A DNA stretch of 64,000 bases from Myxococcota bacterium (GTDB taxonomy: Bacteria > Myxococcota_A > UBA796 > CAJQPC01), in the NCBI GenBank assembly GCA_036012755.1, contig DASCPX010000009.1, positions 1 to 64,000 of the forward strand, in the 5' to 3' direction. Of the stretch, positions 13,666 through 36,038 are shown one piece after another. Every line of letters begins with the position of its first letter. Position 1 is the stretch's first letter. The notes beneath the pieces were generated by a model. It searched no databases and was not told the DNA's origin. It saw only the letters and a program-made list of their open reading frames with translations. The position numbers and the translations under genes are program-made.

Positions 13666-13671
13666 GCCCCC

Positions 13672-15711: not shown

Positions 15712-15739
15712 GCCCACCCATCGCTGTAGACTTGGCTTC

Positions 15740-20084: not shown

Positions 20085-20576
20085 ATGAAGCGACGAGATC
20101 TGCTGAAGGGCCTGGCCGTCGGAACTGCCGTCGGGTGTCTCCCCGTCTCGCTCGGGCGACCCGCAGAGGCCGCCGCCGCCGCCGTCGAGCCGGGCGATGG
20201 CCCCTGGTGGCTGCTCGCCCCACTCCGTCCGGGTCAACAGCTGGCCTTCGGATGGCACCTCGGGCTCTTCGAGTCCCTCGACCGAGGCGCGCTGATCCTG
20301 AACCTCCACAACACGGACGGGCGGAACGCCCGGGTGCACCTCTGCTACCACCAGGGCAGGCCCAAGGGTGTGGGCCACACGGAGCTCCTGGACCTGGTCC
20401 TCATGGACGGCGGCGCCGGTGCCTCGCCCACGGAGGAGTCCGTCGGCCGTGTCGTCCGTCACGTGGCCGAGATCGTTCGCAAAAACGAGCTCCGCGAGGG
20501 CGCGGAAGAGGAGCTCGCCCGGCTCATGACCCACGGCGAGCGCGTCGAGACCTTCGGCCCGGAGACCCTGGTCTGA
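20085..20576 (+). CDS. Twin-arginine (Tat) signal protein of unknown function, first gene of the Hxs block
   Basis: MKRRDLLKGLAVGTAVG (Tat consensus) followed by an Ala-rich cleavage region; stop overlaps hxsD start (TGATG at 20574-20578). Confidence 0.75.
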   Translation: MKRRDLLKGLAVGTAVGCLPVSLGRPAEAAAAAVEPGDGPWWLLAPLRPGQQLAFGWHLGLFESLDRGALILNLHNTDGRNARVHLCYHQGRPKGVGHTELLDLVLMDGGAGASPTEESVGRVVRHVAEIVRKNELREGAEEELARLMTHGERVETFGPETLV

Positions 20577-20998
20577 TGGAGCTGTCCTACGAGCTGGACG
20601 AGCGGCGCGTGCGCTTCCCCATCGACGAGTCGCTGTTTCCCCTCGACGCGATCTACGGGGCTGCCTACCTCTTCGTCGACCGCTGCTATGTCTTCCTCGA
20701 CCGCCCGACTGACCAGGTCGTGGAGGTCCAGCTGCGCACCAAGGGCGAGGCGGACGAGGCGGCGCTCGAGGCGCTCGCCGGGGAGTTCGCCAACGAGCTG
20801 CTCAACCAGGTCCTGCGCGTCCGCGTCGGCGAGTCCACCCGCAAGCTGCGGGAGTACACCCTGGCGAAGGCCTTCTTCTCCCACACGCGGACCACCAGCA
20901 TCGACGCCCTGCTCGCCGAGCTCGACGCCGAGGAGCTCGAGGACGACCCCCTGGAGATCGAGGTCCCCTGGGACAAGCCGGAGTCGCCCGGTGCCTGA
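20576..20998 (+). CDS. hxsD: His-Xaa-Ser system protein HxsD
   Basis: 140 aa: D..LFPL.AIY.AAY.F.DRCYV.L ... EFANELLNQVLR..V...T..LRE..LA.AF matches the HxsD pattern; adjacent to an HxS-repeat peptide. Confidence 0.8.
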   Translation: MELSYELDERRVRFPIDESLFPLDAIYGAAYLFVDRCYVFLDRPTDQVVEVQLRTKGEADEAALEALAGEFANELLNQVLRVRVGESTRKLREYTLAKAFFSHTRTTSIDALLAELDAEELEDDPLEIEVPWDKPESPGA

Positions 20999-21206
20999 TC
21001 TGCGCTTCCATCGCTCGCTCTACCCGGCGGAGGTCGTGGTCTCGGCCGCGGAGACCTTCAGCCAGCTCGCAACCATCACGGTCGAGGACAACGAGCACGA
21101 CGTGAAGCTGTCGATCGAGGACGTCCACCCCCACTTCGAAGGCCGGCTGGCGGACGAACTGGCCAACTACGTCCTCCAGGCCACCATCCAGGCGGAGCGG
21201 TCGTGA
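20991..21206 (+). CDS. Short HxsD-like protein (71 aa)
   Basis: GTG start overlapping the hxsD stop; LRFHRSLYP..VV..A...F ... DELANYVL parallels HxsD (LFP..AI..A / EFANELL). Confidence 0.7.
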   Translation: MPDLRFHRSLYPAEVVVSAAETFSQLATITVEDNEHDVKLSIEDVHPHFEGRLADELANYVLQATIQAERS

Positions 21207-21240
21207 GGTCGAACGCGCCCATGCATTACAGGGAAGCCTG

Positions 21241-21588
21241 ATGTCCATCAAAGACGACAAGCCCGGGCTCCCCACCATCAACAAGAGCCCCTCTGACTTC
21301 CTCCAGAAGCAGGAGGCCCAGGACGCCGCCGCCGAGGCATCCCCTTCCCTCTTGCTCCTGAACGCCGCGGACGGCCTCGATCTGGACGCGGCCCACCTCG
21401 ACCGCACCCTGGCCGGCCTGCCCGACGCCCTGGGCACGCACTGTTCCCATGGATCCCACGGCTCACACGGTTCGCATGGCTCACACGGCTCACACGGCTC
21501 GCACGGAAGCCATGGCTCCCACGGATCGCACGGCAGTCACGGCAGTCATGGCTCCCACGGATCGCATGGCAGCCACGGGCAGTGGTGA
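21241..21588 (+). CDS. hxsA: His-Xaa-Ser repeat RiPP-like precursor (HxsA-type): 66-aa leader + HCS-(HGS)14-HGQW
   Basis: Direct translation; AGGGA SD-like motif upstream; repeat encoded by highly varied synonymous codons; lies between HxsD genes and radical SAM genes. Confidence 0.85.
   Translation: MSIKDDKPGLPTINKSPSDFLQKQEAQDAAAEASPSLLLLNAADGLDLDAAHLDRTLAGLPDALGTHCSHGSHGSHGSHGSHGSHGSHGSHGSHGSHGSHGSHGSHGSHGSHGQW
21439..21585 (+). repeat. 9-bp period coding repeat (His-Gly-Ser codons)
   Basis: CAY-GGN-(TCN/AGY) x14 after CAC-TGT-TCC, ending CAC GGG CAG TGG. Confidence 0.95.
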
Positions 21589-22540
21589 CTCGCTCGTCCT
21601 GACGGTCACGCGGCGGTGCGACCTCCGCTGCAGCTACTGCCCGACGGCGAAAGAGGGCTGGCCCTCGCTGAGCATCGGCCAGGTCAACCGGGCCATCGAT
21701 CTCTTCGTCGAGGGCGGCGGCGGTGACCTCAAGCTCTTCGGTGGCGAACCCCTGCTCGTTCCGGAGGTGGTGGAGGCGGTGCTCGACCGGACAGAGGACG
21801 AGCCTGCGATCTCGCGGGTCTACCTCTCGACCAACGGGCTCGGCCTGGACGAGGGCTGGCTGGCTCGGCGACGCGACAAGCTCATCCTGACGATCTCGAT
21901 GGATGGGCGCCCAGAGGACCACCGGCGTTTCCGACGCCCGGCTCGCGAGGGTGTCCGAGATGCCTACGACCACGTGATCTCCCTGCTCCCGGCGCTGTTG
22001 CGGACCCCCCGGGTCGTGCTCACGATGACGATTCCACCTGCCTCGGCGCATAGCGCAGTCGAGAACTTCGACCACCTCCGCGGCCTGGGCTTTCGCCGCT
22101 TCAACCTGCTGCCCGGCTACTACCTGCCCTGGCGACCACAGCAGCTCGAAGCGCTCCGAGAAGGCCTCGACGGCATCGCGACACGCTTCCGGGTCGCCTG
22201 GTCGGAGGGCTCGCACCTCTACCTGCGCAACCTCTTCACCTGGGCGCCGACACCCTTCTTCAACACGGGCATGGTGGTCGACGCCGACGGCTCGATCCAC
22301 CCGAGCAACATCGGGCTGTCGCTGGATCACCTCTGCGCCGAGACCCGCGCAGGCACGCTGGAGGCGCCCCCCTCGGCGGCCGAGCTCGACGACAAAGCCG
22401 GGACCATCAGCGCCTTGCTGGAGCGAGAGGTGGACGAGCGCGTCCTGGCCTCGACCAGGGCGGTCGACGCGGAGCTGACCCGCATGGTGCGCGGCCTCTA
22501 CCCGGCCTGGGCAGCATGGAAGAAGGCGAGGAGCTCGTGA
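21566..22540 (+). CDS. Radical SAM enzyme 1 (HxsB/anaerobic-sulfatase-maturase-like core, SPASM cysteines lost)
   Basis: TRRCDLRCSYC, FGGEPLL, STNG, ISMDG; 'DADGSIHPS' where SPASM proteins have DG..YPC. Start uncertain (last in-frame ATG 21566; frame open from 21449). Confidence 0.85.
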   Translation: MAATGSGDSLVLTVTRRCDLRCSYCPTAKEGWPSLSIGQVNRAIDLFVEGGGGDLKLFGGEPLLVPEVVEAVLDRTEDEPAISRVYLSTNGLGLDEGWLARRRDKLILTISMDGRPEDHRRFRRPAREGVRDAYDHVISLLPALLRTPRVVLTMTIPPASAHSAVENFDHLRGLGFRRFNLLPGYYLPWRPQQLEALREGLDGIATRFRVAWSEGSHLYLRNLFTWAPTPFFNTGMVVDADGSIHPSNIGLSLDHLCAETRAGTLEAPPSAAELDDKAGTISALLEREVDERVLASTRAVDAELTRMVRGLYPAWAAWKKARSS

Positions 22541-23481
22541 GCTGGGTCGGACCCGACGGGCGAGTAATGAGGCGCCTGGAGCTGCACCTGACCTACACCT
22601 GTCCCCAGGCCTGCGTGTTCTGCTCAGAGGACCACCGGATGCAGCGTTTCCGGAAGTTCCCCGTGACCTGGGGACGGGTCGCGGCGACCCTCCGGGAGCA
22701 CGCCGCCCATGGGGTCGACCACCTCCACCTCACAGGCGGCGAGCCGACCATCCACACCCGCTTGCTGGACGTGCTCGCCCTGGCGAGGAAGCTGGGCATG
22801 CGGACCTCGATCGGCACCATCGGCGCACGGCTGGCCCGCGAGGACTTCGCCGCCTTGGCCTTTCCGCTGCTGGATACAGCCCTCTTCAGCCTCCACGGTC
22901 CCACCGCGGAGCTCCACGACAGGCTGACCTCGAAGGCCGGGAGCTTCGAGAGGCAGCTTCGCGCGATGGAGCTGGCGGAGCGACACCCCACCCTTCGCTG
23001 CGCGAACACGGTGGTCTGCAAGGACAACATCGAGCGGCTCCCGGAGACCGTGGACTTCCTCGATCGAGCAGGTGTTTCCTTGATCGTCGTGTCGAACACC
23101 ACCCCCGAGGGCGCGGCCCTGGATCGCTACGAGGAGCTGGCTGTCACCCTCGAGGTCCTCGCCGAGGTCCTGCCCAAGGTGCGCACCGAGCGGGCCACGC
23201 TGCGCTTCTTCGGGGTGCCGATGTGTGTCCTGTCAGAGGACCAGCGGATGCTCTCGAACGACCTGCACTGGGACCCGCGGGTGACCGTGGAGTGGACCGC
23301 CGAGCCCGACAAGGTGGTCTACACCGGTCAGTTCAACTGGACCCCGGCCCGGAAGCGCAGCCACGTCGAGGAGTGCGCCCAGTGCAGCCTGCGGGGGGTC
23401 TGCATGGGGGTCTACACCCACTACGCCGAGCTCTGGCCGACCACCGCGCTCTGCGCTCGGCCGGCTATCGTGGCGGAGTGA
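22537..23481 (+). CDS. Radical SAM enzyme 2 (HxsC-like)
   Basis: CPQACVFC, TGGEPT, SLHG...HD.LT...GSF, GVPMC, CAQCSLRGVCMG; GTGA overlap with previous stop. Confidence 0.88.
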   Translation: MSWVGPDGRVMRRLELHLTYTCPQACVFCSEDHRMQRFRKFPVTWGRVAATLREHAAHGVDHLHLTGGEPTIHTRLLDVLALARKLGMRTSIGTIGARLAREDFAALAFPLLDTALFSLHGPTAELHDRLTSKAGSFERQLRAMELAERHPTLRCANTVVCKDNIERLPETVDFLDRAGVSLIVVSNTTPEGAALDRYEELAVTLEVLAEVLPKVRTERATLRFFGVPMCVLSEDQRMLSNDLHWDPRVTVEWTAEPDKVVYTGQFNWTPARKRSHVEECAQCSLRGVCMGVYTHYAELWPTTALCARPAIVAE

Positions 23482-24467
23482 CCCGCGACACGCGCCGCAA
23501 CATCGAAGTGAACGTCGGCAAGGCGTGCAACAACCGCTGCGTCTTCTGCCTCGATGGCCTCCCCAAGCGCGAGGACCGCTCCTTCCTACCGCTGGCGGAC
23601 ATGAAGGCGGAGATCACCCGCTGGTACGGCGAGGGCCACCGCAGCCTGGGCTTCCTCGGCGGCGAGCCGAGCACCTACCCCGGGCTCACGGAGTCCATCG
23701 CTCATGCCCGGGATCTCGGCTTCACCCGCATCGCCATCGCCACCAACGGGACCAGGCTTCGCAAGGCGGCCTTCGTCGATCGCCTCATCGACGCGGGCCT
23801 GACCCGGGTGACGGTCTCCTCCCACGGCCACACAGCAGAGCTGGAGGACCGGCTCACGCGAGTCCCGGGCAACTTCCTGAAGAAGCAGCAGGCCCTGCGC
23901 ATCCTGGTGGACCGCCGCGACGCTGGCCGCCTGCCGGACAACGTGAGCGTGAACATCGTGCTCAACGGCTGGAACTACCGAGTCCTGCCGAAGATGCTCC
24001 GCTACTTCTTCGGCCTTGGCGTGGACGACGTGCGCGCCAACTTCATCCGCAGCGAGGGCCACGCCGACGAGGACTGGTCGCTCACCCCGACCTACCAGCA
24101 GACGGTGCCGGTGCTCATGAAGGCCCTCGCGCTCAACGAGTTCCACTTCCACAAGTCATTCACCTTCGGCGGCTTCCCCCTCTGCGTGCTGCCCATGGAG
24201 TTCCTCGCGAACACGCGCATGGTGAGGAAGTACCTGGGCGAGTACCGGGACCTCGACACCGACTGCTCGGTCCGCGGCGAGGGCGACCACGGCATCGCAG
24301 AGGTCGAGGACGGCCGGGCCCGCTTCAACTGGCAGGATCGCAAGCGCTTCGATCTCAAGCACCAGCTGGAGCGCTGCGGTCACTGCCGCTACGCCGGGGT
24401 CTGCGAGGGCGTCTGGAAGATGTACCTCACCATCCACGGCGACGAGGAGTTCTCGCCCGTGCCGTGA
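23478..24467 (+). CDS. Radical SAM enzyme 3 (HxsC-like)
   Basis: CNNRCVFC, LGGEPS, ATNG, GFPLC, CGHCRYAGVCEG; GTGA overlap. Confidence 0.88.
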   Translation: MTRDTRRNIEVNVGKACNNRCVFCLDGLPKREDRSFLPLADMKAEITRWYGEGHRSLGFLGGEPSTYPGLTESIAHARDLGFTRIAIATNGTRLRKAAFVDRLIDAGLTRVTVSSHGHTAELEDRLTRVPGNFLKKQQALRILVDRRDAGRLPDNVSVNIVLNGWNYRVLPKMLRYFFGLGVDDVRANFIRSEGHADEDWSLTPTYQQTVPVLMKALALNEFHFHKSFTFGGFPLCVLPMEFLANTRMVRKYLGEYRDLDTDCSVRGEGDHGIAEVEDGRARFNWQDRKRFDLKHQLERCGHCRYAGVCEGVWKMYLTIHGDEEFSPVP

Positions 24468-24479
24468 TAGACGGCGCCC

Positions 24480-25565
24480 ATGCGGGAGTCCCTCGCCAGC
24501 GCCAGGCGCGTGGTCGTCAAGGTCGGAACCAGGGTCGTGTCTCGGGACGATGGGCGCGTCGCCCTGGGCCGGATCGGCATGCTCATAGAGCAGATCGCAG
24601 AGCTGCGAGAGGCCGGCAAGCAGGTCCTGCTGGTGTCCAGCGGAGCCATCGGCCTGGGCGCGGATCGCCTCGGTCTGGAGCCCAAGAACGTCGCGGACCA
24701 GCAGGCTTGCGCAGCCGCCGGACAGGGGGCTCTGGTCGCCTTCTACGACGCCCTCACCCGCCGCCTGGGCATCCGCACGGCCCAGGTCCTGCTCACCGAA
24801 GGCGACTTCCACGACCGGCGTCGCTACGTGAACCTGTCGGTGGCCCTGGAGCGCCTGCTCGCACTCGGCGCGCTGCCCGTCATCAACGAAAACGACGCCG
24901 TCAGCACCGCCGGCATCGATCCCGAGCGGGCTCGCATCTTCGGCGACAACGACCGCCTGGCCGCCCTGGTCGCCGCTGGCCTCGACGCCGACCTGCTGGT
25001 GCTGCTCACCAACGTCGACGGGATCTTCACCGCTCCCCCAGAGGAGGAGGGCGCCCAGCGGATCTCGGTCTGGAGCGACGACGAGGTGCGCTTCGGCTCC
25101 GTCTCCCATGGCGGACGCGGGGGCATGAAGGCGAAGGTCGAGGCCTGCCGGGTCGCAAACGGCGCCGGGGTCCATGTCGTGGTCGCCAACGGCTTCGAGG
25201 ACGGCATCCTCCACCGGATCCTCGCCGGAGACGACCTCGGCACGCTCTTCCCCGCCGAGCGCAGACAGGCCCGGCATCGGCGCTGGCTGCGCTTCGCGAC
25301 ATCTCCAGCCGGTGTCCTGATTGTGAACGAGGGCGCTCGCGAGGCCCTGGTCGCCCGCAACGCATCGCTCCTGCCCGTGGGCGTGGTGCGGGTCGAGGGC
25401 GACTTCGGCTCTGACGAGGTCGTCGCCATCGCCGGCGAGGACGGCGTGCCCTTCGCTCGGGGGGTCTGCAAGCCCTCCTCCGAAGAGGCCCGCGGGCGTC
25501 TCGGCAAGCGCGGCGAGGCGGTGCTCGTCCACCGCAGCCGCCTGGTCTTCCTGGAGGCCCCATGA
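24480..25565 (+). CDS. proB: Glutamate 5-kinase with PUA domain
   Basis: VVKVGT, VSSGAI, QACAAAGQ, PVINEND, FGDND.LAA, GRGGM..K, SLLPVGV..VEGDF. Confidence 0.95.
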   Translation: MRESLASARRVVVKVGTRVVSRDDGRVALGRIGMLIEQIAELREAGKQVLLVSSGAIGLGADRLGLEPKNVADQQACAAAGQGALVAFYDALTRRLGIRTAQVLLTEGDFHDRRRYVNLSVALERLLALGALPVINENDAVSTAGIDPERARIFGDNDRLAALVAAGLDADLLVLLTNVDGIFTAPPEEEGAQRISVWSDDEVRFGSVSHGGRGGMKAKVEACRVANGAGVHVVVANGFEDGILHRILAGDDLGTLFPAERRQARHRRWLRFATSPAGVLIVNEGAREALVARNASLLPVGVVRVEGDFGSDEVVAIAGEDGVPFARGVCKPSSEEARGRLGKRGEAVLVHRSRLVFLEAP

Positions 25566-26818
25566 GTCCCGTCGAGCTCGCCGTGGCCGCGAAGGCGGCG
25601 GCTCTTGGCCTGCAGCGAAGCAGCACCGTGGCTCGCGCCGCAGCCCTGGAGCGCATGGCCACCGCCCTGATCGAGCGACAAGACGAGATCCTCGCGGAGA
25701 ACGAGCGGGACTTGGCCGTCGCCGGCGACCTGGAGCCAGCGCTACGCAGCCGGCTGAAGCTGAGCCCGGCCAAGCTCGCGACCCTGGCGGAGGGCATCCG
25801 AGCGATCGCGGCAGCGGAGGAGCCCCTCGGTCGGGTCCTGCGCGCAACAGAGCTGGCAGAGGGCCTCGAGCTCCAGCAGGTCACCGCCCCCATCGGCGTG
25901 CTCCTCGTCATCTTCGAGTCCCGCCCGGACGTGCTGCCGCAGGTCGCCGCGCTGGCGGTGAAGAGCGGCAACGGCCTGCTCTTGAAGGGCGGCTCGGAGG
26001 CTCTGCACAGCAACCGCTGCCTCCACCGGATCGTGACGGAGGCCCTGGACCTCGGGCCTGTCATCGGCTTGGTCGAGACCCGCGCCGACATCGCCGATCT
26101 GCTCGCTCTGGACGATGTGATCGACCTGGTCATTCCTCGGGGATCGAAGGCCCTGGTCCGCCACATCCAGCAGAACACGCGCATCCCGGTGCTCGGCCAC
26201 GCCGACGGTGTCTGCCACGTCTACGTCGACGACGCCGCGGACCTCGGGAGCGCCCTGGAGGTCGTCCTCGACGCCAAGTGCGACTACCCGGCGGCCTGCA
26301 ACGCGATGGAGACCCTGCTGCTGCACGAGGCCCTCGATCCCTCCCCCTTCGTCGAGGCCCTCGAAGCAGCCGGGGTCGTCGTCCACCGCCAGCCCGCCGA
26401 CTGGCACACGGAGTACGGCAGCCTCGAGTGCAGCCTGGCCATCGTCTCGGGCATCGACGAGGCCATCGACCACATCCACGCTCATGGCAGCGGCCACACA
26501 GAGGCCATCCTCACAGCGGACCCCATCGCCGCGCAGCGCTTCCTCGACGGGGTCGACAGCGCCTGTGTGTTCCACAACGCCTCCACCCGCTTCGCGGACG
26601 GCTACCGCTTCGGCCTGGGCGCCGAGGTCGGCATCTCGACCGCCCGCATCCACGCCCGGGGCCCCGTCGGCCTCGACGGCTTGTTGACCACGCGGTGGAA
26701 GCTACGGGGCCAGGGCGACACCGCCAGCGCGTTCTCACGCGGGGAGCGCGTGTTCACGCACCGGGCGCTCGACCGGTCGTCCCAGGTCCTGGGTGCGCAT
26801 CGACGCGAAGGCGACTGA
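25562..26818 (+). CDS. proA: Gamma-glutamyl phosphate reductase
   Basis: PIGV..IFESRP, KSGN..LLKGGSEA..SN, IPRG, GVCHVYVD, ACNAMETLL, GSGHTE.I, NASTRFADG..FG.GAEVGIST..IHARGPVG. Confidence 0.95.
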   Translation: MSPVELAVAAKAAALGLQRSSTVARAAALERMATALIERQDEILAENERDLAVAGDLEPALRSRLKLSPAKLATLAEGIRAIAAAEEPLGRVLRATELAEGLELQQVTAPIGVLLVIFESRPDVLPQVAALAVKSGNGLLLKGGSEALHSNRCLHRIVTEALDLGPVIGLVETRADIADLLALDDVIDLVIPRGSKALVRHIQQNTRIPVLGHADGVCHVYVDDAADLGSALEVVLDAKCDYPAACNAMETLLLHEALDPSPFVEALEAAGVVVHRQPADWHTEYGSLECSLAIVSGIDEAIDHIHAHGSGHTEAILTADPIAAQRFLDGVDSACVFHNASTRFADGYRFGLGAEVGISTARIHARGPVGLDGLLTTRWKLRGQGDTASAFSRGERVFTHRALDRSSQVLGAHRREGD

Positions 26819-26872
26819 CGGACGCGCGGGCACCTGGTGCCCCTCCAGGGCAGGGCCCGAATGCGACGGGAT

Positions 26873-27021
26873 GTTGCGTATCGGCCTCGGTTCTCCGGAA
26901 CCCCCGGAGATGTGCAACAGAACGTTGCGTATCGGCCTCGGTTCTCCGGAACCCCCGGATATGTGCAACAGAACGTTGCGTATCGGCCTGGGTTCTCCGG
27001 AACCCCCGGAGATGTGCAACA
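26873..27021. repeat. Tandem 51-bp palindromic repeat, about 3 copies (REP-like)
   Basis: Unit GTTGCGTATCGGCCTCGGTTCTCCGGAACCCCCGGAGATGTGCAACAGAAC starts at 26873, 26924 and 26975; contains TCTCCGG/CCGGAGA and GTTGC/GCAAC inverted pairs; no spacers. Confidence 0.9.
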
Positions 27022-27179
27022 AGACGTGCTTGCACGCCGCGGACGAGAGAGGACCAGTCCTCAGCCAAGTGTCCGATCATATCGCCGGAGACCGGATCGT
27101 AGACGCCCCCAGATCGGTCGAAGACCACGTCTTCGGCGTTGCCGACGTTGGCTCGTTCCTTCGCCGCATTCAGCCTCCT

Positions 27180-27282
27180 GCCCGCCGACTGGCACACGGA
27201 GTACGGCAGCCTCGAGGCAGCCTGGCCATCGTCTCGGGCATCGATGAGGCCATCGACCACATCCACGCCCACGGCAGCGGCC
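27180..27282 (+). pseudogene. Frameshifted internal fragment copy of proA (duplicate of 26392-26495)
   Basis: 103 vs 104 bp; one T deleted (GAGTGC>GAGGC) and three third-position changes (GAC>GAT, GCT>GCC, CAT>CAC). Confidence 0.9.
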
Positions 27283-27360
27283 GGCGTGGCCGGGCTGCGA
27301 GACACACTGCCGGAGTGAGGCGGACAGGCGGGGGCGAAGAGGCGGGGGTCGGTTCGTCGG

Positions 27361-29493
27361 TCAGTCGGGCAGTCGATCAGCCGGGACAAGCCGCTCCACC
27401 TCCCCGTCCCACTCCACCCGAAACAGCGGCGCCTCCCCATCATGGCGGACGGGGCCCTCGCCGTCCCGAAAGAACAGCCGTCCGCTCGATCCCCACAGCG
27501 CGCGAACCCGTCCGGACACCGGCTCCCAGACGCGAATCATCGCCCCACCGACACCGCCTGCGCTGCCCCCGAGCACCACCCGTCCGCCCATCCAGTGCAC
27601 CGACGCGACGTTGTCTACGGCGAGGGTGTGCGTGGGCTGCCCGCTGTCCACGGCCAGGACCTCCACCCGACCATCAGCAACGACAAGCGCGGTGTCCTGC
27701 TCGGGATGGACCGCGACCGCAGCGATCCCCGCCCGCTGCCAGCGAAGCGTGCCGTCCGTCCAGCAGCACAGTGCCCCGGCTTCGTCCCGGCTCAGCAGCG
27801 CGCCGCCCGCAGACCACGCCGCATCGCACACCTTCGCGGCGGACTCCAGCACCCGCAGTCCGTCCCCCGGCGTCCACAGCAGCAGCCTGGCGGAGCGGTC
27901 CACCACGGCGATCTGTGCCCCCATCACCCACTGCTTGACTGCACAGACATCGGCGATGGGACAGGCCGCCAACCGTGCCCCGGTCTCCACACACCACACC
28001 GCAGCCGCGTCCTGGTCACGGATCAGGATCTGGGCATCGTCCAGCCAGCCCAGGACCGCCTCCCCCGGCAGCATGATCACTACACCGGACGCCTGCCAGA
28101 TCCGGATCCCGAACGGCGTCTTGTCGGTGGTGGTCACCGCCAGACGTCCCCCGCCCGGCGCCCACGATCCACCAGGAACCCCGGTCATCGATCCGACCCA
28201 GTCGGTCGACACGAAGCACGCCTGCTCGGTCCAGTCCGCCGTCGACCAGATCCGCAAGCTGCCGTCCCAGGAAGCACTGGCCAACCAGGCGCCGTCCGCG
28301 GAGAAGCGGGCGTACATCAGCGCGCCAGTGTGCCCGATGAGTCGGGTCACCTCGCGCTCCTGCGCCAGATCGCAGACGATGAGCGCGCCGCCTTCACCGG
28401 ACAGCACGAGGTGCTCGCCCCACTGCACCCCGATCTGCCCCGTCGGCGGGGACTCCGGGTCGATGGCCACCGCCCGCACCGCGCCGCCCTCGTCGACCAC
28501 GACCAGGCGATAGTCGGGCCAGACGAAGGTCCGCCCGTCCGGGAGGATCCCCGCGATCAGCGCATCCATCTCCCCGAACAGCTCCAGCAGCACCGCCCCC
28601 GACTCTGCGTCGATGAGGCAGACATCGCCGGTGTCATCGACCACCACGACCGCCGCTTCCCCCACCCAGGCCGCGGCGTTGGGGCAGACGAATTCCGCCT
28701 CGGGCAGGCTCAGGACGGACGCATCGGTCAGGTCGACCATCGCCACGGACGAGTCACCGGTCAGCAGGAGCCGCTCGCCGGACGGACTGAGGTGGACGTT
28801 CCCGAACAGCCGCGGCAGCAGGACCGGCTCAGACGGCGCCCCGACCAACAACTGCAGCGTCGGCGGGGCTCCCAGAAGCGCGCATTCCTGGCCATCCGCC
28901 CACCAGAAGACCGCCAGCGTCTCCGAGCGAACCGACGCGACCGCCCCGGTGGTCAGATCGAACAGCACGGTCTGATTCTCGCCGTAGCCGCCCCTCGAAC
29001 CGATGGCCAGGATGCGCCCGTCGGGACCGATGCGCAGCGCCTTTCCGTAGTTGAGGAAGTCCGTGCCCTCCGGCCAGGGCAGCACTCGCCATGCCCCGGT
29101 CGCCGGTGTCCAGGAGAACAGCCCCACGTCCGACACCACCCCGATGAGCGTCTGGCTGTCTGATGTCCAACACAGCGGACCCCGGCCCCCTGCGCGGAAG
29201 GCGTGGCGCTTCTTGGTCCGGGTGTCGAAGACCTCGATCCCGTCTCCCTCCAGAGCCAGCCAGGCACCGTCCGGACTCCAGGTCGGCGCCCGGGCGTACA
29301 GCGGCAGCCGATGACGGGCCACCACCCGCCAGGGATCCGGCGTCAGCCAGAGCATGGTGGTCTTCGACCTGGCTGGAAGGGGACCACCGCTGCCCAGCGA
29401 CGAGATCACCACCGCACCGCGACCATCCGGCGCCCCAGCCGCCATCCCTGCTCCCGAGAACAACCCCGGGAGGCCATCAAGCCACGCCGCCAT
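27361..29493 (-). CDS. WD40/beta-propeller repeat protein
   Basis: WSPDG.WLA, GHTG......FSADG.WLASASWDGSLRIW, IRIWQ, IRVWE repeats; 710 aa. Confidence 0.8.
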   Translation of the reverse strand: MAAWLDGLPGLFSGAGMAAGAPDGRGAVVISSLGSGGPLPARSKTTMLWLTPDPWRVVARHRLPLYARAPTWSPDGAWLALEGDGIEVFDTRTKKRHAFRAGGRGPLCWTSDSQTLIGVVSDVGLFSWTPATGAWRVLPWPEGTDFLNYGKALRIGPDGRILAIGSRGGYGENQTVLFDLTTGAVASVRSETLAVFWWADGQECALLGAPPTLQLLVGAPSEPVLLPRLFGNVHLSPSGERLLLTGDSSVAMVDLTDASVLSLPEAEFVCPNAAAWVGEAAVVVVDDTGDVCLIDAESGAVLLELFGEMDALIAGILPDGRTFVWPDYRLVVVDEGGAVRAVAIDPESPPTGQIGVQWGEHLVLSGEGGALIVCDLAQEREVTRLIGHTGALMYARFSADGAWLASASWDGSLRIWSTADWTEQACFVSTDWVGSMTGVPGGSWAPGGGRLAVTTTDKTPFGIRIWQASGVVIMLPGEAVLGWLDDAQILIRDQDAAAVWCVETGARLAACPIADVCAVKQWVMGAQIAVVDRSARLLLWTPGDGLRVLESAAKVCDAAWSAGGALLSRDEAGALCCWTDGTLRWQRAGIAAVAVHPEQDTALVVADGRVEVLAVDSGQPTHTLAVDNVASVHWMGGRVVLGGSAGGVGGAMIRVWEPVSGRVRALWGSSGRLFFRDGEGPVRHDGEAPLFRVEWDGEVERLVPADRLPD

Positions 29494-29499
29494 CGCTCC

Positions 29500-29655
29500 T
29501 CCGCGGCGGGGCCAATCCTGACGTGCCCGTCACGGGCCGAGGACGAGGAAGGTCTCGCCCGCATCCCACGCCGTCGTGTCGCTCCCGGCCAATCCCAGCA
29601 GCATATCGTTCACCCCATCTCCGTCGACGTCTCCGATGCCCGCGGCCCGCTGGGA
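29500..29655 (-). pseudogene. Remnant of an FG-GAP repeat gene
   Basis: Reads AAGIGDVDGDGVNDMLLG....TTAWDAGETFLVLGP then continues VTGTSGL after a 1-nt shift; resembles GDTDGDGNNDIVIG...SAWDAGAAYVVLGPVT in 13672-15711; no start or context of its own. Confidence 0.6.
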
Positions 29656-29663
29656 CATGCACC

Positions 29664-30494
29664 TCAGTCTTCGGTGTCCGTCGCCGGGCTCTCGACCGGG
29701 GGGATGGTCAGTCGTTCGGCGAGCGATCCTGTCCCAGCGGCGGCGAACTCGGCGACCGCATCCGTCCCTCCCAGCCGCTGCACCGCTCCCCACACGGCGC
29801 GGGCGTCGGCCGCCTTGGCTGCGTCGTCGGTGGGGGGCTCGATGTCGAGGTCCCGGTACAGGCCGTTGGAGAGGGCGAACGCAGCCATCGGGACATCCGA
29901 GGCCAGCGCGTCGCGAACCGATGTCGCGTCCTGAGCGGACTTCTCTGCCGCGTCGCGGGCGAGGATTCGCTTCTCGGCGGCGTTGTTGTAGGCGCAGAGG
30001 ACCGCGGCCCAGTGGACCGCGTAGGGCGTCTCGCCCCACTCGATGAGGGGGGCGTTCATCCCCTTCGCGATGTCGGCCGCCAGTCGCCAGGCTTCATCGT
30101 CCTTTGGCGTGTAGCAGATGTTCGCCGTGCTTGGGCACTGCCCGCGGTGAGCGGCGTACGCGACGGGCGCGGTGCTCACGGAAGGCGCGAAGCCATAGAA
30201 GCCGTCGACCTTGTACTCGCCGGTGTAGAAGTCCTCTGGCGCATGGAACGTGGGTCGAGTGGCTTCGCCCACCACCTCTCGCACGGACGCGAACGCGTAG
30301 ACCCGACCCAAGGCGTCGTACCACTCGCCGCCCATCTCCACCGCTTCGAGCGTCTCCCACTCGACCGGGAACAGCGGCCCTGGGGGATCCATGGGGTCGA
30401 TGTGGGTGCGATCCGGGAGCGGGTCGGGCACCGGAGCGGGCTCGACGCACAGGTCTGCCGCGGGCATCGCCCAGGCAGAAGCGATCCACATCAT
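29664..30494 (-). CDS. Hypothetical exported protein
   Basis: Starts MMWIASAWA at an ATGA overlap with the upstream SRPBCC gene; no recognisable motif. Confidence 0.55.
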   Translation of the reverse strand: MMWIASAWAMPAADLCVEPAPVPDPLPDRTHIDPMDPPGPLFPVEWETLEAVEMGGEWYDALGRVYAFASVREVVGEATRPTFHAPEDFYTGEYKVDGFYGFAPSVSTAPVAYAAHRGQCPSTANICYTPKDDEAWRLAADIAKGMNAPLIEWGETPYAVHWAAVLCAYNNAAEKRILARDAAEKSAQDATSVRDALASDVPMAAFALSNGLYRDLDIEPPTDDAAKAADARAVWGAVQRLGGTDAVAEFAAAGTGSLAERLTIPPVESPATDTED

Positions 30495-31039
30495 GGGCGC
30501 TCCGTCTCGGCCCGCCTGCGCTGACCTTCGAGCTGCTCGCTCATCGAGCCCCCGACCAGGGCCTTCTTGATCCACATCGGCGTGCCCCCAGCGCTGATGT
30601 CGGCGGTGTACATCATCCGGCTGTGCTCCCCGCGGGCGTAGACCTGGTAGGCTCCGTCGGAGGCGGAGATGTCGTTTTCGTAGCTCTCGTCGAGGTGGTA
30701 CTCGGTGTAGTTCTCGGCCCTGTCGACGGTGTAGAGGATGTGGAAGTCGGCCGAGAAGCCGATCAGGCTGGCCTCGAACTTCGCGCCGATGATGTCGGTC
30801 TCCTCGCGGTAGAGGCTGACCTTGTCGAGGTTGTCGATGTCCCCGGCGCGGGCTGGCAGATCGAGCACGGCGGCGAGGACCACATCAGGCGGGGCGTCGA
30901 TGTCGATGAAGGCCACGACCGAGCTCTCGCTCTCTGTGCGCACGACGATCTCGCGAGCATCCAGGGCCTTGGTCTCGGCCTCCGTCAGCTCGGGCAGGGT
31001 GACGGGACCGGCGAAGGCACTGGCGAGTAGCAACCACAC
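30491..31039 (-). CDS. SRPBCC/START (polyketide cyclase-like) ligand-binding protein, exported
   Basis: Signal MWLLLASAFA; IDIDAPPDVV...V.D, DI....G.Y.V, P.WIKK.L C-terminal helix. Confidence 0.6.
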   Translation of the reverse strand: MWLLLASAFAGPVTLPELTEAETKALDAREIVVRTESESSVVAFIDIDAPPDVVLAAVLDLPARAGDIDNLDKVSLYREETDIIGAKFEASLIGFSADFHILYTVDRAENYTEYHLDESYENDISASDGAYQVYARGEHSRMMYTADISAGGTPMWIKKALVGGSMSEQLEGQRRRAETERP

Positions 31040-31093
31040 AGCTGGAAGCTAACCGTCCGGGGAGCGTCATCCAGGCAGGAGGCAACACCCGGA

Positions 31094-31099
31094 TAGGCT
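31094..31099 (+). promoter_or_regulatory. Putative -10 element (TAGGCT) for the second radical SAM block; divergent partner TAGCTT at 31046-31051 (- strand)
   Basis: TANNNT 7 nt before GTG 31107 and 6 nt before GTG 31039 on the opposite strand. Confidence 0.45.
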
Positions 31100-31106
31100 A
31101 CTGGCC

Positions 31107-32339
31107 GTGGAAGCGAGCCACCGGACCAAGGGCCTGTTGCGGCTGACGATGGCGTGCAACGAGCGCTGTCCCTTCTGCAACGTGCCCGCCGAGGACCACC
31201 CCGGTCACCCGACCCCCGACGAGGACCTCGAGGCGGCACTCCAGGGATTGGCCAGCCGCGGCGAGCGGACGGCGACCATCTCCGGAGGGGAGCCGACCAT
31301 CCTCCGGAAGCGACTGGTGGCCCTCGTCGCCAGGGCGCGGGCCCTGGGCCTGGACTTCGTCGAGCTCCAGACCAACGCCGTGCTGCTGACGCCGGACTAC
31401 GTCGAGGAGCTGCACGAGGCAGGGCTCACCTCCGCCTTCGTGAGCCTCCTCGCGGACAACGAAGTCGACCACGACGCACTCGCCGGACTCGGGGGCGCCT
31501 TCGAGCGCTGCCTCGCCGGCATCGACGCCCTCCTCGACGACCGCATCCCGGTCACGCTCAACCCGGTCTTCACGGCGCGGACCCAGGGGCTCCCACCTCG
31601 CTACATCGCCTTCGTCAGCGAGCGCTTCCCGGGCATCGCCCACATCTCGATGAGCGCCGTGCAACCCCACGGGCGAGCCGCCGACGGTGCCATGCTGCCC
31701 GACTACGCCGTGTTGGGTCCGGCGATCACAGAGGCGCGGGAGATCGCATCAGAGCGCGGGATCGAGCTCTTGAACCCCTACTGCGGGCTGCCGCTGTGCG
31801 CAGGCTGGGCGGACGACCTGGAGCACTGCGTGGAGAGCCTGGACCCCTCGACGGGACCCGGACTGGACAACGCCGGGAACAAGGCCTTCGGCCCCCCTTG
31901 CCGTCGCTGCGCCCTGCGGCCGGCCTGCGGAGGCGCTTGGCACGCCTACTGGACGGAGCGCGGAGGCAGCGGACTCCAGGCTCCCGTCCAGAAGCACCCA
32001 CCCTGGGACGGAGCACCGACGACAGAGGCTGCGACGGTCTGGGGCCACGACCTCCAGGATGACGCCACGGACCTCGCCCTCACCTGGAACCCGGACGATC
32101 TGCCCACCTTGAAGCGCATACGACAGTTCATCTCCGGCCAGGCCGGACGCCCCGGTCGCCAGCGGGTCCAGGTCGCCCTGGGCATACGGGTCGCCGGCCT
32201 GGGAGAGGCCGCGGTGCTGGAGCTGGTGCGCATGGCCAACGCCATCGGCGTGACGCAGGTTGGGCTCCTCGGGGGGCACGCCGAGCTGGCCAGGAAGCTG
32301 GAGTCGATCGGTGGACTCCCGGTCGAGGCGCGGCCATGA
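31107..32339 (+). CDS. Radical SAM enzyme 4 (HxsC-like, with C-terminal extension)
   Basis: CNERCPFC, SGGEPT, LQTNA, CGLPLC, CRRCALRPACGG. Confidence 0.88.
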   Translation: MEASHRTKGLLRLTMACNERCPFCNVPAEDHPGHPTPDEDLEAALQGLASRGERTATISGGEPTILRKRLVALVARARALGLDFVELQTNAVLLTPDYVEELHEAGLTSAFVSLLADNEVDHDALAGLGGAFERCLAGIDALLDDRIPVTLNPVFTARTQGLPPRYIAFVSERFPGIAHISMSAVQPHGRAADGAMLPDYAVLGPAITEAREIASERGIELLNPYCGLPLCAGWADDLEHCVESLDPSTGPGLDNAGNKAFGPPCRRCALRPACGGAWHAYWTERGGSGLQAPVQKHPPWDGAPTTEAATVWGHDLQDDATDLALTWNPDDLPTLKRIRQFISGQAGRPGRQRVQVALGIRVAGLGEAAVLELVRMANAIGVTQVGLLGGHAELARKLESIGGLPVEARP

Positions 32340-33229
32340 AGAACCTCGTCGCAGCCTTCTCGACTCGCTTCCGCGGACACACCGACCGCGGCTGGGACCT
32401 TCCCCATCCGCCCCTGGAGGCGCTGGTCCAGCTCGCGGACGAAGACGACGTCGTGCTCGGCGGCGGCGAGCCCACCCTCAGACCGGACCTGCCTCGCCTG
32501 CTGGCAGCCATCCCGACGGCTCGCCTGCACACCGACGGCCTGGCCTTCGCAGAGGGCCTCCAGGGGCTGGAGCTCCAGCGCGTTCGCATCGACTTCCACT
32601 GCGCGCGACAGGACGCACACGACTGGCTGGTCGGCCAGAAGGGAGCTGCCCGATCAGCGGTCCGAGCCATCCGCACCTGCCTGGAGGCGGGGCTCGACGT
32701 GGAGGTCGAGGTGCTGCTGACGCGCCCGACACTGCCCCACATCGAGGAGACGCTGGCTGTGCTGGAGTCACTGGGCGTGCAGCAGACGCGCCTGCGCCCG
32801 ATCGAGCGCCGTGGACCAGCGGCGGAGCACTACCTCGCGCTGGCGCCCCCGCTGACCGGTCTCCGACGACCCATCGTGCAGGGCGAGCTCTGGCACGCCC
32901 CAGGGGACCACCCCCTGGCCCAGCCTCTGGTGGCGAGCGACTCCAGCGGCCTCGGCAGGCGCCGCAGCATGCGCTCGGGAGGGGCCTCCATCGACCTGCG
33001 CGCTGCCCCTACACGCGCCCTCCGACAGCGCATGGTGAGCCTGGCCGAGCAGCATGACAGCCTGGATGTCCTGGTCGACCTGGAGCGACCCGAGTCCCCG
33101 GAGTTGATCACGGACTGCCTGCGGCTGTTCGCGACCGTCGACGCGGTGGCCACCGGGTCCTCCGAGCACTGGTCGAAGGCCGAGCTGCGCCACTTGAGGC
33201 GGCTCACGACCCTGACAGAGGCGAAGTAG
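32336..33229 (+). CDS. Degenerate radical-SAM-fold protein lacking CxxxCxxC
   Basis: Retains LGGGEPTLRPDL, LHTDG, HD.LVG..GA....RAI but has no N-terminal Cys triad; ATGA overlap with rSAM4. Confidence 0.7.
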   Translation: MKNLVAAFSTRFRGHTDRGWDLPHPPLEALVQLADEDDVVLGGGEPTLRPDLPRLLAAIPTARLHTDGLAFAEGLQGLELQRVRIDFHCARQDAHDWLVGQKGAARSAVRAIRTCLEAGLDVEVEVLLTRPTLPHIEETLAVLESLGVQQTRLRPIERRGPAAEHYLALAPPLTGLRRPIVQGELWHAPGDHPLAQPLVASDSSGLGRRRSMRSGGASIDLRAAPTRALRQRMVSLAEQHDSLDVLVDLERPESPELITDCLRLFATVDAVATGSSEHWSKAELRHLRRLTTLTEAK

Positions 33230-33237
33230 GATCCGCC

Positions 33238-34986
33238 ATGGACTCCCGCGCCCGGACCCTCGAGCACGAGCGCATCGCGAGCAGGCCGAAGCACTGGGTG
33301 CGGCTGACCACGGCCTGCAACAACAAGTGCCTGTTCTGCCTGGACATGGACACCCCTCGCAACGTCTACCTCGCGACAGAGGACATCGAGGCCGACATCC
33401 GCCGCGGGCACGTCGAGCTCGGCGCCGCAAAGGTCATCCTCAGCGGCGGCGAAGCCAGCGTCCACCCGCTGTTCTCACGCTTCATCCGCTTCGCCCTCGA
33501 GATCGGCTACGAGCGCGTCCAGACCGTGACCAACGGGCTCCGCTACGGCGACCGCCGGTTCTTCGACGAGGTCATGGACGCTGGCCTCGGCGAGATCACC
33601 TTCAGCCTGCATGGCCACGACGCCGCGCTCCACGACCGCCTCGTACAGACCCCCGGCAGCTTCGAGCTGCTCATGAAGGGGCTGCTGCGGGCGGTCCGAC
33701 ATCGCGACCGGCACGGCTGGCCCATCGTGAACATCGACGTGGTCATCAACTCGCAGAACGTCGGGGTCCTCGACCGCATCGTCGAGCTCGGCGTGAGCGT
33801 CGGCGTCAAGGAGTACGACCTGCTGCACGTCATCCCGCAGGCAGAGGCCTACAGGAATCGCGAGCAGCTCTTCTACGAGGTGCGGGAGCACCTGCCCGTC
33901 CTCCAGAAGGTCTTCAGGCTCAACCGCCGGGACGACTTCCACATCTGGACGAACCGCTTCCCGGTGGCCTACCTCGAAGGCCTCGAGGACCTCATCCAGG
34001 ATCCCCACAAGATGATCGACGAGGTCAGGGGCCGGCGCTTCCATGTCCGGCGCTACCTCGACTCGGGGACGCCGCTGGACTGCCGGCAGCCAGAGCGCTG
34101 CGAGCACTGCTTCATCGAGCCCTTCTGCACGACCATGGAGCGGACCATCGAGGCCCAGAACGGACACCGAGTAGACCTGTGGCACGTCGGTGGAGGGTCC
34201 TGGAGCGGTCCCCTGCCCTTCGGGGCCTGCCGTCTTGGTGTGATCCGTGAACGATATGAGGATCTTCCGACCGATTACCCGCTGCTGGTCGAGACCTCTA
34301 CGACGGAGCTGCCCGAACCTGGGGACGTCATCCTCGTCGCGAAGACCGCAGAGCAGTGTGCAGCCTGGCTCGGCCACGACATGGTCGTCCGCCTGAACCC
34401 CTCTACGGCACCGTGGCTGCTGGCGAACGTGAACGCTCTGCATGACCTACGCATCCACCAGCCGACCTGGACGAAGACGGAGGAGGCGGTCGCGGGTGAC
34501 CTGCGCGACCCCGCGGGCTTCTTCCGCCAGCTGAAGCGCCGTGTGCCCGTGAGCGGCCTGCCCGCTTGCCTGGCACCCGGGATGGAGCTGGTCCGAGTGC
34601 CGAGACGACTCGACGCGGCGCTCTTCCACGAAGGCCGCCTCCACTGGGAGGCCCTGGCGGCCTTCCACGTCGAGCACCACTACAGGGCGCGCTCGGTGCG
34701 CTGTGACGACTGCCCGGTGTCGGAGCTCTGCGAGGGCATCTCCATCCACATGATCCGAGCCCAGGGTCTGGGGCTCTGCCAGCCGCTGGAGGGTGACCAC
34801 GCCCGCGACGCGCGCGAGCAGCTCAGCGCACTCCCCAAGCGCATCGCCCAGGGCCTGCCGCCGCAGCCGGTGGCAGCCAGCCTGCCGGGTCACCCGCCAC
34901 CATCGGAGCCTCCGGAGGATCCCCTGCGCCAGCCCAACGGGCTCCGTCGCTCGGACTTCCTGCGAGGCGGGCGCGAGGTCGTCTGA
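33238..34986 (+). CDS. Radical SAM enzyme 6 (582 aa, two C-terminal Cys modules)
   Basis: CNNKCLFC, SGGEAS, VTNG, SLHG...HD.LV..PGSF; C.....CEHCFIEPFC, then GLPAC ... CDDCPVSELCEG. Confidence 0.88.
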   Translation: MDSRARTLEHERIASRPKHWVRLTTACNNKCLFCLDMDTPRNVYLATEDIEADIRRGHVELGAAKVILSGGEASVHPLFSRFIRFALEIGYERVQTVTNGLRYGDRRFFDEVMDAGLGEITFSLHGHDAALHDRLVQTPGSFELLMKGLLRAVRHRDRHGWPIVNIDVVINSQNVGVLDRIVELGVSVGVKEYDLLHVIPQAEAYRNREQLFYEVREHLPVLQKVFRLNRRDDFHIWTNRFPVAYLEGLEDLIQDPHKMIDEVRGRRFHVRRYLDSGTPLDCRQPERCEHCFIEPFCTTMERTIEAQNGHRVDLWHVGGGSWSGPLPFGACRLGVIRERYEDLPTDYPLLVETSTTELPEPGDVILVAKTAEQCAAWLGHDMVVRLNPSTAPWLLANVNALHDLRIHQPTWTKTEEAVAGDLRDPAGFFRQLKRRVPVSGLPACLAPGMELVRVPRRLDAALFHEGRLHWEALAAFHVEHHYRARSVRCDDCPVSELCEGISIHMIRAQGLGLCQPLEGDHARDAREQLSALPKRIAQGLPPQPVAASLPGHPPPSEPPEDPLRQPNGLRRSDFLRGGREVV

Positions 34987-36038
34987 TGGCAAACCTGGGC
35001 TACCTCCAGCTCACCCGCAACTGCCTCCAGTCGTGCCGCTTCTGCTCCAACCCACCGACCGGGATGGGGCTCGACGAAGATCAGATGCGTGGTCTGATCG
35101 ACGAGCTCGCCGACCGGGACTACGACGGCGTGATCCTCACGGGAGGAGAGCCGAGCCTCTCGCCGCTGCTGTTCTTGGCCCTGGCCCATGCCGCCGAACG
35201 CGGCCTCCACAGCCGCATGATCACCAACGGCCAGAGCCTGGCAGACGCCGAGTTCTTCCGGCGCTGCGTGGACGCAGGCCTGTCCCACGTCCACTTGAGC
35301 CTCCACAGCTACAGAGCCGAGGTCCACGACTTCATCACCCGCTACCCGGGCAGCTACGAGGCCATCGTCCGGTGCCTGGAACTCGTGCCGGAGATGGGCA
35401 TCACAGCTGACATCAACTGCGTCATCAACGCCTACAACTCCGACCACCTCCACCACAGCGCGATCTGGATCACCGAGCACTTCCCGTGGGTGCGCCACTT
35501 CGTCTGGAACAACATGGATCCCGATGGCAACCGGGCAGAGGACAACCCCGACTGCATCCCCAGGCACTACGAGTTCAGCCTCAGCCTGGAGCTCGCCATG
35601 AAGCACCTCCACGCCACTGGCCGGACCTTCCGCGCTGAGCGGGTTCCGCTGTGCTCGATGCCGGCGTTTCCCTGGGCCTCGACCGAGACACGCAAGATCG
35701 TCAAGGAGGAGGAGCGCTGCGTCCGCTTCCTCGACGCCAAGGGCTTCGTCCAGCAGCTGGAGTTCCTCCACGGCAAGGGCGAGCCCTGCGATGCCTGTCG
35801 CTGGGACGGGATCTGCGCGGGCATGTACTCGATGGCGCGCTCCTTCGACGAGCGGGAGCTCTCGCCGGTCTTCGAGGACATCGAGCCCACCGTGCGGGCC
35901 GTGCTCGGCCGCGAGCCTGAGCCCGAGCTCCTGGAGCGACTCCAGGCCCGTCGAGGCAGGCGATCGCTGACAGAGCAGCCCTCTGAGCGACAGCGCGCGG
36001 AGGCGCTCGCCCGGCCCTTCCCTCCGGGGGCGGCTTGA
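34986..36038 (+). CDS. Radical SAM enzyme 7 (HxsC-like)
   Basis: CLQSCRFC, TGGEPS, ITNG, SLHS...HD.IT..PGSY, RVPLC, CDACRWDGICAG; TGATG overlap. Confidence 0.88.
   Translation: MANLGYLQLTRNCLQSCRFCSNPPTGMGLDEDQMRGLIDELADRDYDGVILTGGEPSLSPLLFLALAHAAERGLHSRMITNGQSLADAEFFRRCVDAGLSHVHLSLHSYRAEVHDFITRYPGSYEAIVRCLELVPEMGITADINCVINAYNSDHLHHSAIWITEHFPWVRHFVWNNMDPDGNRAEDNPDCIPRHYEFSLSLELAMKHLHATGRTFRAERVPLCSMPAFPWASTETRKIVKEEERCVRFLDAKGFVQQLEFLHGKGEPCDACRWDGICAGMYSMARSFDERELSPVFEDIEPTVRAVLGREPEPELLERLQARRGRRSLTEQPSERQRAEALARPFPPGAA

Follow-up and report, generated by a model that had tools for sequence, protein, structure and literature searches.

Gene content of the locus

The window analysed here is a 64,000-nucleotide stretch (positions 1 to 64,000 of the forward strand) of contig DASCPX010000009.1 from a Myxococcota bacterium (assembly GCA_036012755.1), whose genome (6.7 Mb, 96% complete, 68% G+C) is called G000 in the comparisons below; marine metagenomes contain DNA of this genome, with no RNA data set listed among them, and the organism is probably an uncultured marine myxobacterium. 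Two blocks of genes in the window encode a small His-rich precursor peptide, two HxsD-like proteins, a twin-arginine (Tat) protein, and seven proteins of the radical S-adenosylmethionine (rSAM) fold. The system is a much larger relative of the His-Xaa-Ser (HXS) system, and its iron-sulfur enzyme set probably reworks one small His-rich peptide and sends it out of the cell with a partner protein. The 11 open reading frames (ORFs) are all encoded on the + strand; starts and stops of neighbours overlap or abut, and each ORF lies where an earlier note on this DNA had placed it. The gene set of that note was incomplete, as it had missed an upstream gene for a lipoprotein with immunoglobulin-like (Ig) repeats and the absence of hxsB from the cluster. 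The features of the system are the following.

17813..20083, +: Ig-repeat lipoprotein-like protein, 756 aa, with a PPC-like C-terminal domain specific to the system (co-occurrence of this domain; lipobox-like LLAC)
20085..20576, +: Tat protein, 163 aa, proposed export partner of the precursor (RR motif in homologues)
20576..20998, +: HxsD, 140 aa (TIGR03976, 62.9 bits, cut-off 50)
20991..21206, +: HxsD_rel, an HxsD-like protein, 71 aa (NF038315, 61.8 bits, cut-off 41)
21203..21241, +: 12-codon mini-ORF at the position of hxsB in relatives, which preserves start/stop coupling
21241..21588, +: HxsA4 precursor, 115 aa (NF038313, 101.8 bits, cut-off 55)
21566..22540, +: rSAM1, CxxxCxxC only, unnamed family (best match PapB, 79 of 340 bits)
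22516..23481, +: rSAM2, HxsC/HxsC4-like (NF038332, 80.8 of 500; TIGR03977, 73.3 of 267.9)
23478..24467, +: rSAM3, HxsC4-like, auxiliary motif (NF038332, 144.5 of 500)
31107..32339, +: rSAM4, HxsC-like, auxiliary motif (TIGR03977, 77.1 of 267.9)
32336..33229, +: rSAM5, pseudo-radical-SAM protein (neither CxxxCxxC nor auxiliary Cys motif)
33238..34986, +: rSAM6, 582 aa, HxsC4-like N-terminal domain, two auxiliary Cys motifs (NF038332, 86.9 of 500)
34986..36038, +: rSAM7, HxsC-like, auxiliary motif (TIGR03977, 88.5 of 267.9)

The precursor consists of a 66-aa leader and, as described before, a 49-aa core with 14 HGS units, HCS(HGS)14HGQW, in which there are 16 His residues and no Lys or Arg. The HGS repeat is coded and not a product of slippage because its synonymous codons are varied; an origin by chance was rejected on the basis of this variation together with the in-frame coding and the conserved leader. 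Motifs of the leader are conserved among relatives, in which the repeat number ranges from 4 to 49 and the core-terminal Trp is invariant. Read from its sequence, the leader is acidic and has neither an N-terminal hydrophobic stretch nor a signal peptide, and profile searches gave zero matches of the precursor to TIGR03979 or to the peptidoglycan-binding models of Pfam. This precursor is the sole genuine ORF of the genome with at least four HxS units; a second match, on contig C71, is apparently the shadow frame of a GET repeat. In one relative (G025, L025:16608-18197), a sulfotransferase-family gene lies between the precursor gene and rSAM1, and it is possible that it adds a tailoring step.

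The precursor belongs to the NCBIfam family HxsA4 and the two small proteins belong to HxsD and HxsD_rel, respectively. Since all three pass the cut-offs of these models, the system is of the HxsA4 subtype of HXS, a subtype that the earlier note had framed only as a variant and for which NCBIfam already has the HxsA4 and HxsD_rel models. The search against Hxs models that the note had proposed therefore succeeded for the precursor and the small proteins and failed for the enzymes, none of which passes HxsB or HxsC. When the fold of HxsD was compared with known structures, it had a weak likeness to RpoL/Rpb11/Pcc1 folds (best E 3.6e-3).

All seven enzymes match Pfam Radical_SAM, with rSAM5 falling short of its threshold (25.6 of 29.5 bits). 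A motif check found CxxxCxxC in rSAM1-4, rSAM6, and rSAM7, where it is conserved in homologues, and not in rSAM5, in line with the six and one counted before. Within the rSAM5 family CxxxCxxC occurs in 0/9 members, and an auxiliary Cys motif is kept by 6/9 and is missing from the protein encoded here. Judged by these residues, rSAM5 is a pseudo-enzyme and not a catalytic radical SAM enzyme, so the claim of seven radical-SAM-fold genes stands for the fold and, for rSAM5, not for catalysis. The auxiliary motif, C...CxxCx5C, is present once each in rSAM2, rSAM3, rSAM4, and rSAM7, twice in rSAM6, and not in rSAM1; the Cys residues of the rSAM2 motif are conserved in 12/12. The probable start of rSAM2 is the GTG at 22537, which forms a GTGA overlap with the rSAM1 stop.

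The best models were HxsC4 for rSAM2, rSAM3, and rSAM6, HxsC for rSAM4 and rSAM7, and PapB for rSAM1, all far under cut-off. In the NCBIfam profile search, none of the seven window enzymes reached the cut-off of HxsB, HxsC, or HxsC4, for which the highest scores in the window were 32.6 vs 370 (TIGR03978), 88.5 vs 267.9 (TIGR03977), and 144.5 vs 500 (NF038332), respectively. Against cyclophane-synthase models, rSAM1 scored 24.9 vs 370 (FxsB) and 27.4 vs 445 (YhhB), and such models were absent among the best 25 listed matches of each of the other six enzymes. A viperin reading was rejected, as the PADLOC pVip matches are partial and reflect general radical SAM similarity.

Association of the blocks with each other, with the Tat protein, and with the Ig lipoprotein

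The linkage of the parts was analysed in two overlapping sets, 41 related genomes that are mutually non-independent and the 80 top-ranking among 180 rSAM6 loci of a genome collection. Counts of loci come from our own profiles with hand-set thresholds, and kin among them are likewise not independent. A strong rSAM6 orthologue is present in 19/41 genomes, and one more genome has a piece of it at a contig end. HxsA4 is over cut-off in 16/41 genomes, and 16/16 of these carry the rSAM6 orthologue; the 21 genomes without rSAM6 had no HxsA4 over cut-off, Tat protein, Ig C-terminal domain, or HxsB. The 18/41 genomes that encode the Tat protein are exactly those with the Ig C-terminal domain. Co-occurrence is broken in two genomes that are fragmented, in one whose short precursor scores under cut-off, and in G036. 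One locus of G036 (L157, contig C3) has the Ig and Tat genes and neither HxsD nor a precursor in the fetched region, and homologues of rSAM3, rSAM5, and rSAM6 lie on other contigs; this set is possibly a dispersed remnant.

At least one Hxs part lies within 10 kb of rSAM6 in 45/80 loci, and in 21/33 when only loci of at least 20 kb are counted; the outcome that would have refuted the earlier note, rSAM4-7 homologues that never co-occur with HxS precursors, was not observed. The common order is HExxH(-), r4-r5-r6-r7-[Ig]-Tat-HxsD-HxsD_rel-HxsB-HxsA4-r1-r2-r3, of which the arrangement in the window is a block-swapped form. rSAM7 adjoins rSAM6 in 61/80 loci and rSAM4 is present in 18/80; a relative of the same genus has lost rSAM4 from its locus. 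Because the two blocks are contiguous in many relatives and co-occur across the 41 genomes, they belong to one system, as the earlier note had proposed when it joined the second block to an expanded HXS system, and we hold it highly probable that the two enzyme blocks, the Tat protein, and the Ig lipoprotein form a single unit. In a sample of 301 genomes from across the phylum, HxsA4 is over cut-off in 97; matches are near-universal in some families (22/23, 13/14) and 0/26 in others.

The Tat gene is upstream of the precursor gene in 29/30 loci, and the precursor follows Tat in 18/18. In five loci the pair stands as its own unit apart from the enzyme genes, and in L083 it is duplicated jointly. 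An RR-x-hydrophobic-hydrophobic sequence is present in 111/119 homologues of the Tat protein, a twin-arginine motif is present in 0/25 precursors, and TatC is encoded in the genome; the Pfam TAT_signal model matched the Tat protein under its cut-off (19.4 of 22.7 bits). The predicted structure of the Tat protein (predicted local distance difference test score, pLDDT, 88.6) is confident, yet Foldseek returned nothing at E<=0.001, the best Z was 4.3, Atlas gave no usable match, and no family could be named. A search of cluster representatives yielded 669 relatives of the protein at E<=0.001. A complex prediction of Tat (residues 30-163) with the precursor (residues 1-90) scored 0.00, which is evidence neither way. 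Because the Tat gene is so tightly linked to a precursor without a signal, export is suggested rather than the intracellular product considered possible before. Signal-less partners are known to cross the membrane bound to a Tat substrate (hitchhiking; PMC4273604), and we give an even chance to the matured core being exported in this way on the Tat protein.

The upstream Ig-repeat lipoprotein belongs to the system. It has weak Big/PKD matches and, read from its sequence, a lipobox-like LLAC; Atlas places its C-terminal domain as PPC-like, which we treat as a lead only. The gene is inside the cluster in 17/80 loci. In one genus (L023, L033, L147, L151), a second, much longer Ig paralogue (~1490 aa where complete) lies directly before the precursor.

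Several neighbouring features lie outside the system. The blocks are separated by the following genes.

24480..31039, strand. : intervening genes proB, proA, WD40 protein, hypothetical protein, and SRPBCC-like protein

Among 20 mapped regions, proB, proA, and the SRPBCC gene are at this place in one same-genus relative only. Directly after proA, at 26873-27021, a 51-bp unit is repeated three times in tandem; it is a dispersed repeat family, present on at least seven other contigs. Beside the WD40 gene, at 27174-27282, an internal part of proA (26386-26495) recurs as a 110-bp copy with 94.5% identity, which resembles a scar left by insertion or recombination. Three further large lipoprotein-like repeat proteins are encoded at 11002-17779, upstream of the Ig gene and on the same strand; within the fetched extent of the mapped relatives' loci they were not conserved. 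A DUF255 thioredoxin-domain gene (36035-38176) overlaps the rSAM7 stop and also follows rSAM7 in two relatives; it was not counted into the system.

Absence of hxsB from the cluster and a remote operon

HxsB is encoded after HxsD_rel in 31 of the 32 related loci with room for it, and the in-cluster HxsB of the same-genus relative scores 489 bits on TIGR03978. In the window there is no hxsB at this place, only the 12-codon mini-ORF (21203-21241) between HxsD_rel and the precursor. An assembly artefact is unlikely because contigs from two of four sequencing runs span this junction without differences (X4, 20967-21770, and X5, 21000-21677); these two runs come from studies that also include possible source samples. 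The mini-ORF is not supported as a remnant of hxsB, as its best 15-mer match (11/15) equals that of three control genes.

The sole HxsB of this genome is encoded on another contig, C198 (TIGR03978, 473.9 vs cut-off 370), in a small operon.

G000:C198:80685-87206 (L035:8686-15207): satellite operon with HxsB, an HxsC-like enzyme, a Trp-halogenase-like flavoprotein, and an HxsC4-like enzyme

The product of the gene after hxsB scores 97 vs 267.9 on HxsC, and the best HxsC4 score is 191.2 vs 500. Orthologues of the HxsC-like enzyme (50-63% identity) are solitary in four relatives and lie beside a remote hxsB in G018 (L137, L138, L139, L140, L143). On the opposite strand at the operon, a B12-type-like radical SAM protein has a Pro-rich tail with several EM(A/V/I)(P/A/V) repeats, and this tail might be a fused substrate.

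The possibility that the C198 hxsB is the relocated in-cluster gene was rejected, as its product is 56.5% identical to the same-genus HxsB and the approximately unbiased (AU) test gave p 5e-5. In a quick tree (LG+G4) of 14 of 17 strong rows, from which three close mates of the genus and one weak match had been excluded, the C198 protein groups with remote copies from G018 and G035 (Shimodaira-Hasegawa-like approximate likelihood ratio test, SH-aLRT, 98); in a careful tree that includes a long-branch row, the three remote copies were left without clear grouping. Based on these sequence comparisons, the C198 HxsB, whose gene is intact, is a paralogue. Strong HxsB proteins are found in 16 genomes and the remote type in 3/16, and the two genomes that lack an in-cluster copy (G000 and G018) are both among those three, a coincidence expected by chance in ~3 of 120 cases by our own arithmetic, done after the fact on small numbers. 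Because both genomes that have lost the in-cluster gene hold a remote-type copy, it is probable that HxsB is supplied in trans from C198.

Two other enzymes vary among relatives. A hydroxylase of the alpha-ketoglutarate-dependent HExxH (aKG-HExxH) type is encoded in 37/80 loci (TIGR04267, 89.6 of 40 in a relative) and was not found in this 96%-complete genome, and a Trp-halogenase-like flavoprotein is encoded in some relatives' loci as well as on C198. Identities to an outgroup, given for this genome and the same-genus relative, are 66.7 vs 68.8 for rSAM1, 64.2 vs 63.8 for rSAM2, 73.5 vs 78.8 for rSAM3, 67.6 vs 65.6 for rSAM6, and 75.6 vs 79.3 for rSAM7. As the remaining enzymes show no marked speed-up relative to the outgroup, these values argue against general decay.

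Relation to known systems and proposed role

In the canonical system (HxsD-HxsB-HxsC-HxsA, TIGR03976-03979), HxsB, HxsC, and HxsD are all reported to be required for HxsA cleavage; in Escherichia coli the repeats are essential, HxsA bears a +8 Da change on an HxS repeat, and it acts in the periplasm, where it delays phage DNA entry (PMC13128918; Li et al., Nat Commun 2026). The role of HXS, which the earlier note had regarded as not well established, is therefore now published as anti-phage. By our own arithmetic, +8 Da equals +C -4H, which would fit one methylation and three -2H steps. The locus shares with canonical HXS an HxS-repeat substrate, an HxsD over cut-off, HxsC-like enzymes with an auxiliary Cys motif, an HxsB encoded in the genome, signs of export, and the lack of a dedicated peptidase. 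No dedicated peptidase or ABC exporter recurs among the neighbours, in line with what had been noted for the two blocks, and there is no need for a peptidase of this kind since HXS cleavage depends on HxsB, HxsC, and HxsD. Unlike canonical HXS, the locus has as substrate a 115-aa HxsA4 whose 15 repeats are non-basic and which lacks both a signal peptide and a peptidoglycan-binding domain. It further differs in having two HxsD-like proteins, five HxsC-like enzymes, rSAM1, a pseudo-enzyme, no HxsC by cut-off, hxsB in trans, and the added Tat protein and Ig lipoprotein. In the survey of PMC13128918, more than 99.8% of the systems have four proteins, and the main text of that paper does not contain the string 'myxococc'.

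The locus agrees with the HxsA4 subtype of NCBIfam (NF038313, NF038315, NF038332) in that the precursor and HxsD_rel pass and HxsC4 is the best match of rSAM2, rSAM3, and rSAM6; it differs in that no enzyme reaches the HxsC4 cut-off and that dedicated models are lacking for rSAM1-7, for the Tat protein, and for the Ig protein. We found no study of this subtype in the literature outside subscription papers, and the supplementary distribution tables of PMC13128918 could bear on this point. The locus probably works like HXS and, by its precursor and HxsD_rel, is a member of the HxsA4 subtype and not a canonical HXS. It adds the linkage of the blocks, the pairing of Tat protein and precursor, an Ig lipoprotein as a component, and a remote paralogue that probably stands in for hxsB.

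Repeat-by-repeat modification has precedents in TvgB on TVGG repeats (PMC9062424) and WprB on WPR repeats (PMC12957482), and triceptides that contain His are described. aKG-HExxH enzymes are reported to add hydroxyl groups to Asp and His of a cyclophane scaffold (PMC12636437, which also cites systems that combine radical SAM and aKG-HExxH enzymes). The locus resembles triceptides and other repeat-core RiPPs (peptides made by the ribosome and modified after translation) in its short repeated motifs, which in those systems are modified one by one, and in the HExxH partner of its relatives. It is unlike triceptides in that the window enzymes have weak or no matches to cyclophane-synthase models, there are many more enzymes per precursor, and HExxH was not found here. 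His-to-X3 crosslinks are a reasonable guess at the chemistry.

In the proposed mechanism, HxsD and HxsD_rel would form a scaffold on which HxsB (in trans), rSAM1, and the five HxsC-like enzymes would oxidise one repeat of the (HGS)n core after another, most likely through three-residue His-to-Ser crosslinks with tailoring of the ends. Leader removal would depend on radical SAM enzymes, as it does in canonical HXS. The matured, signal-less core would then cross the inner membrane bound to the Tat protein and, aided by the Ig lipoprotein, be retained in the envelope, where it would most likely act like HxsA, as a barrier to incoming phage DNA. The explanation that we consider best, one HxsA4-type system that comprises the two window blocks and the C198 satellite operon and acts against phage, has a probability of about 0.45, and its role as an anti-phage envelope barrier is by itself slightly short of an even bet. 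It is rather unlikely that the more specific form of this proposal holds, a split-effector HXS in which at least six rSAM enzymes make a rigid, length-variable His-Ser ladder that is Tat-carried to the periplasm and anchored by the Ig protein.

Several observations weigh against this explanation. The precursor has no counterpart of the signal peptide, peptidoglycan-binding domain, and basic repeat residues of HxsA. A PADLOC scan of 145 of 223 neighbour clusters from 31 loci, made without a control set, matched 9/145 proteins, which by our own reading have generic domains, and gave no defence-island signal. Defence systems are typically patchy in distribution, unlike HxsA4, which is nearly universal in some families. 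G036, 90% complete, keeps Ig, Tat, and scattered rSAM genes, and neither a precursor over cut-off nor HxsB was found in it. The C198 HxsB, being no relocated in-cluster gene, could as a paralogue serve another substrate. Finally, no experiment on any HxsA4 system was found in the literature outside subscription papers.

The same enzymology and export could instead yield a structural or metal-binding envelope component, a stiffened poly-His ladder on the Ig lipoprotein that would bind Cu, Ni, or Zn or support a predatory surface function. The His-rich core without Lys or Arg, the free repeat number, and the lineage-wide retention in some families fit such a product, and exported RiPP metallophores are known (bufferins, PMC11626156); among the recurrent neighbours, screened by inspection only, none was recognisable as a gene of metal homeostasis, and the sole characterised HxS-repeat system is anti-phage (PMC13128918). 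We regard this alternative as unlikely. Still less probable is a diffusible RiPP, crosslinked, hydroxylated, halogenated, and freed as an antibacterial or as a signal for predation. The leader-core layout, the invariant terminal Trp, the HExxH hydroxylase of the relatives, whose kind acts on a cyclophane scaffold (PMC12636437), and the halogenase-like flavoprotein would suit it, yet Tat export stops in the periplasm, a defined small molecule would hardly be expected to vary in its number of repeats, no peptidase or ABC exporter recurs among the neighbours, and the hydroxylase was not found in this genome.

We place at a similarly low level the view that the system is a decaying relic here, having lost hxsB, the HExxH enzyme, and the flavoprotein from the cluster, with the C198 operon serving some other substrate. 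The two enzymes missing from the cluster (hxsB in cis, HExxH from the genome), the shortened rSAM5 without its Cys motif, the loss of rSAM4 in the same-genus relative, and the remnant-like G036 point in this direction. On the other side, the remaining frames are all intact and coupled, catalytic and auxiliary Cys are kept, identity to the outgroup is about as high as that of the same-genus relative, and C198 holds counterparts of two of the three lost genes.

The HxsA4 subtype offers a short, uniform substrate together with several unnamed radical SAM families, so that HXS maturation reactions are directly testable by co-expression, and what has been lost naturally here (hxsB in cis, HExxH, and the cysteines of rSAM5) hints at which enzymes make up a minimal set. 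Should the peptide travel with its Tat partner, this would be an export route for which we found no description in HXS-type systems. If the ladder form of the anti-phage proposal is true, it would mean hitchhiker RiPP export and a ribosomally made envelope polymer in ~1/3 of the sampled phylum, completed in this organism by a paralogous HxsB. With HxsA4 in 97 of the 301 sampled genomes, the function of this system concerns a large, mostly uncultured group of bacteria.

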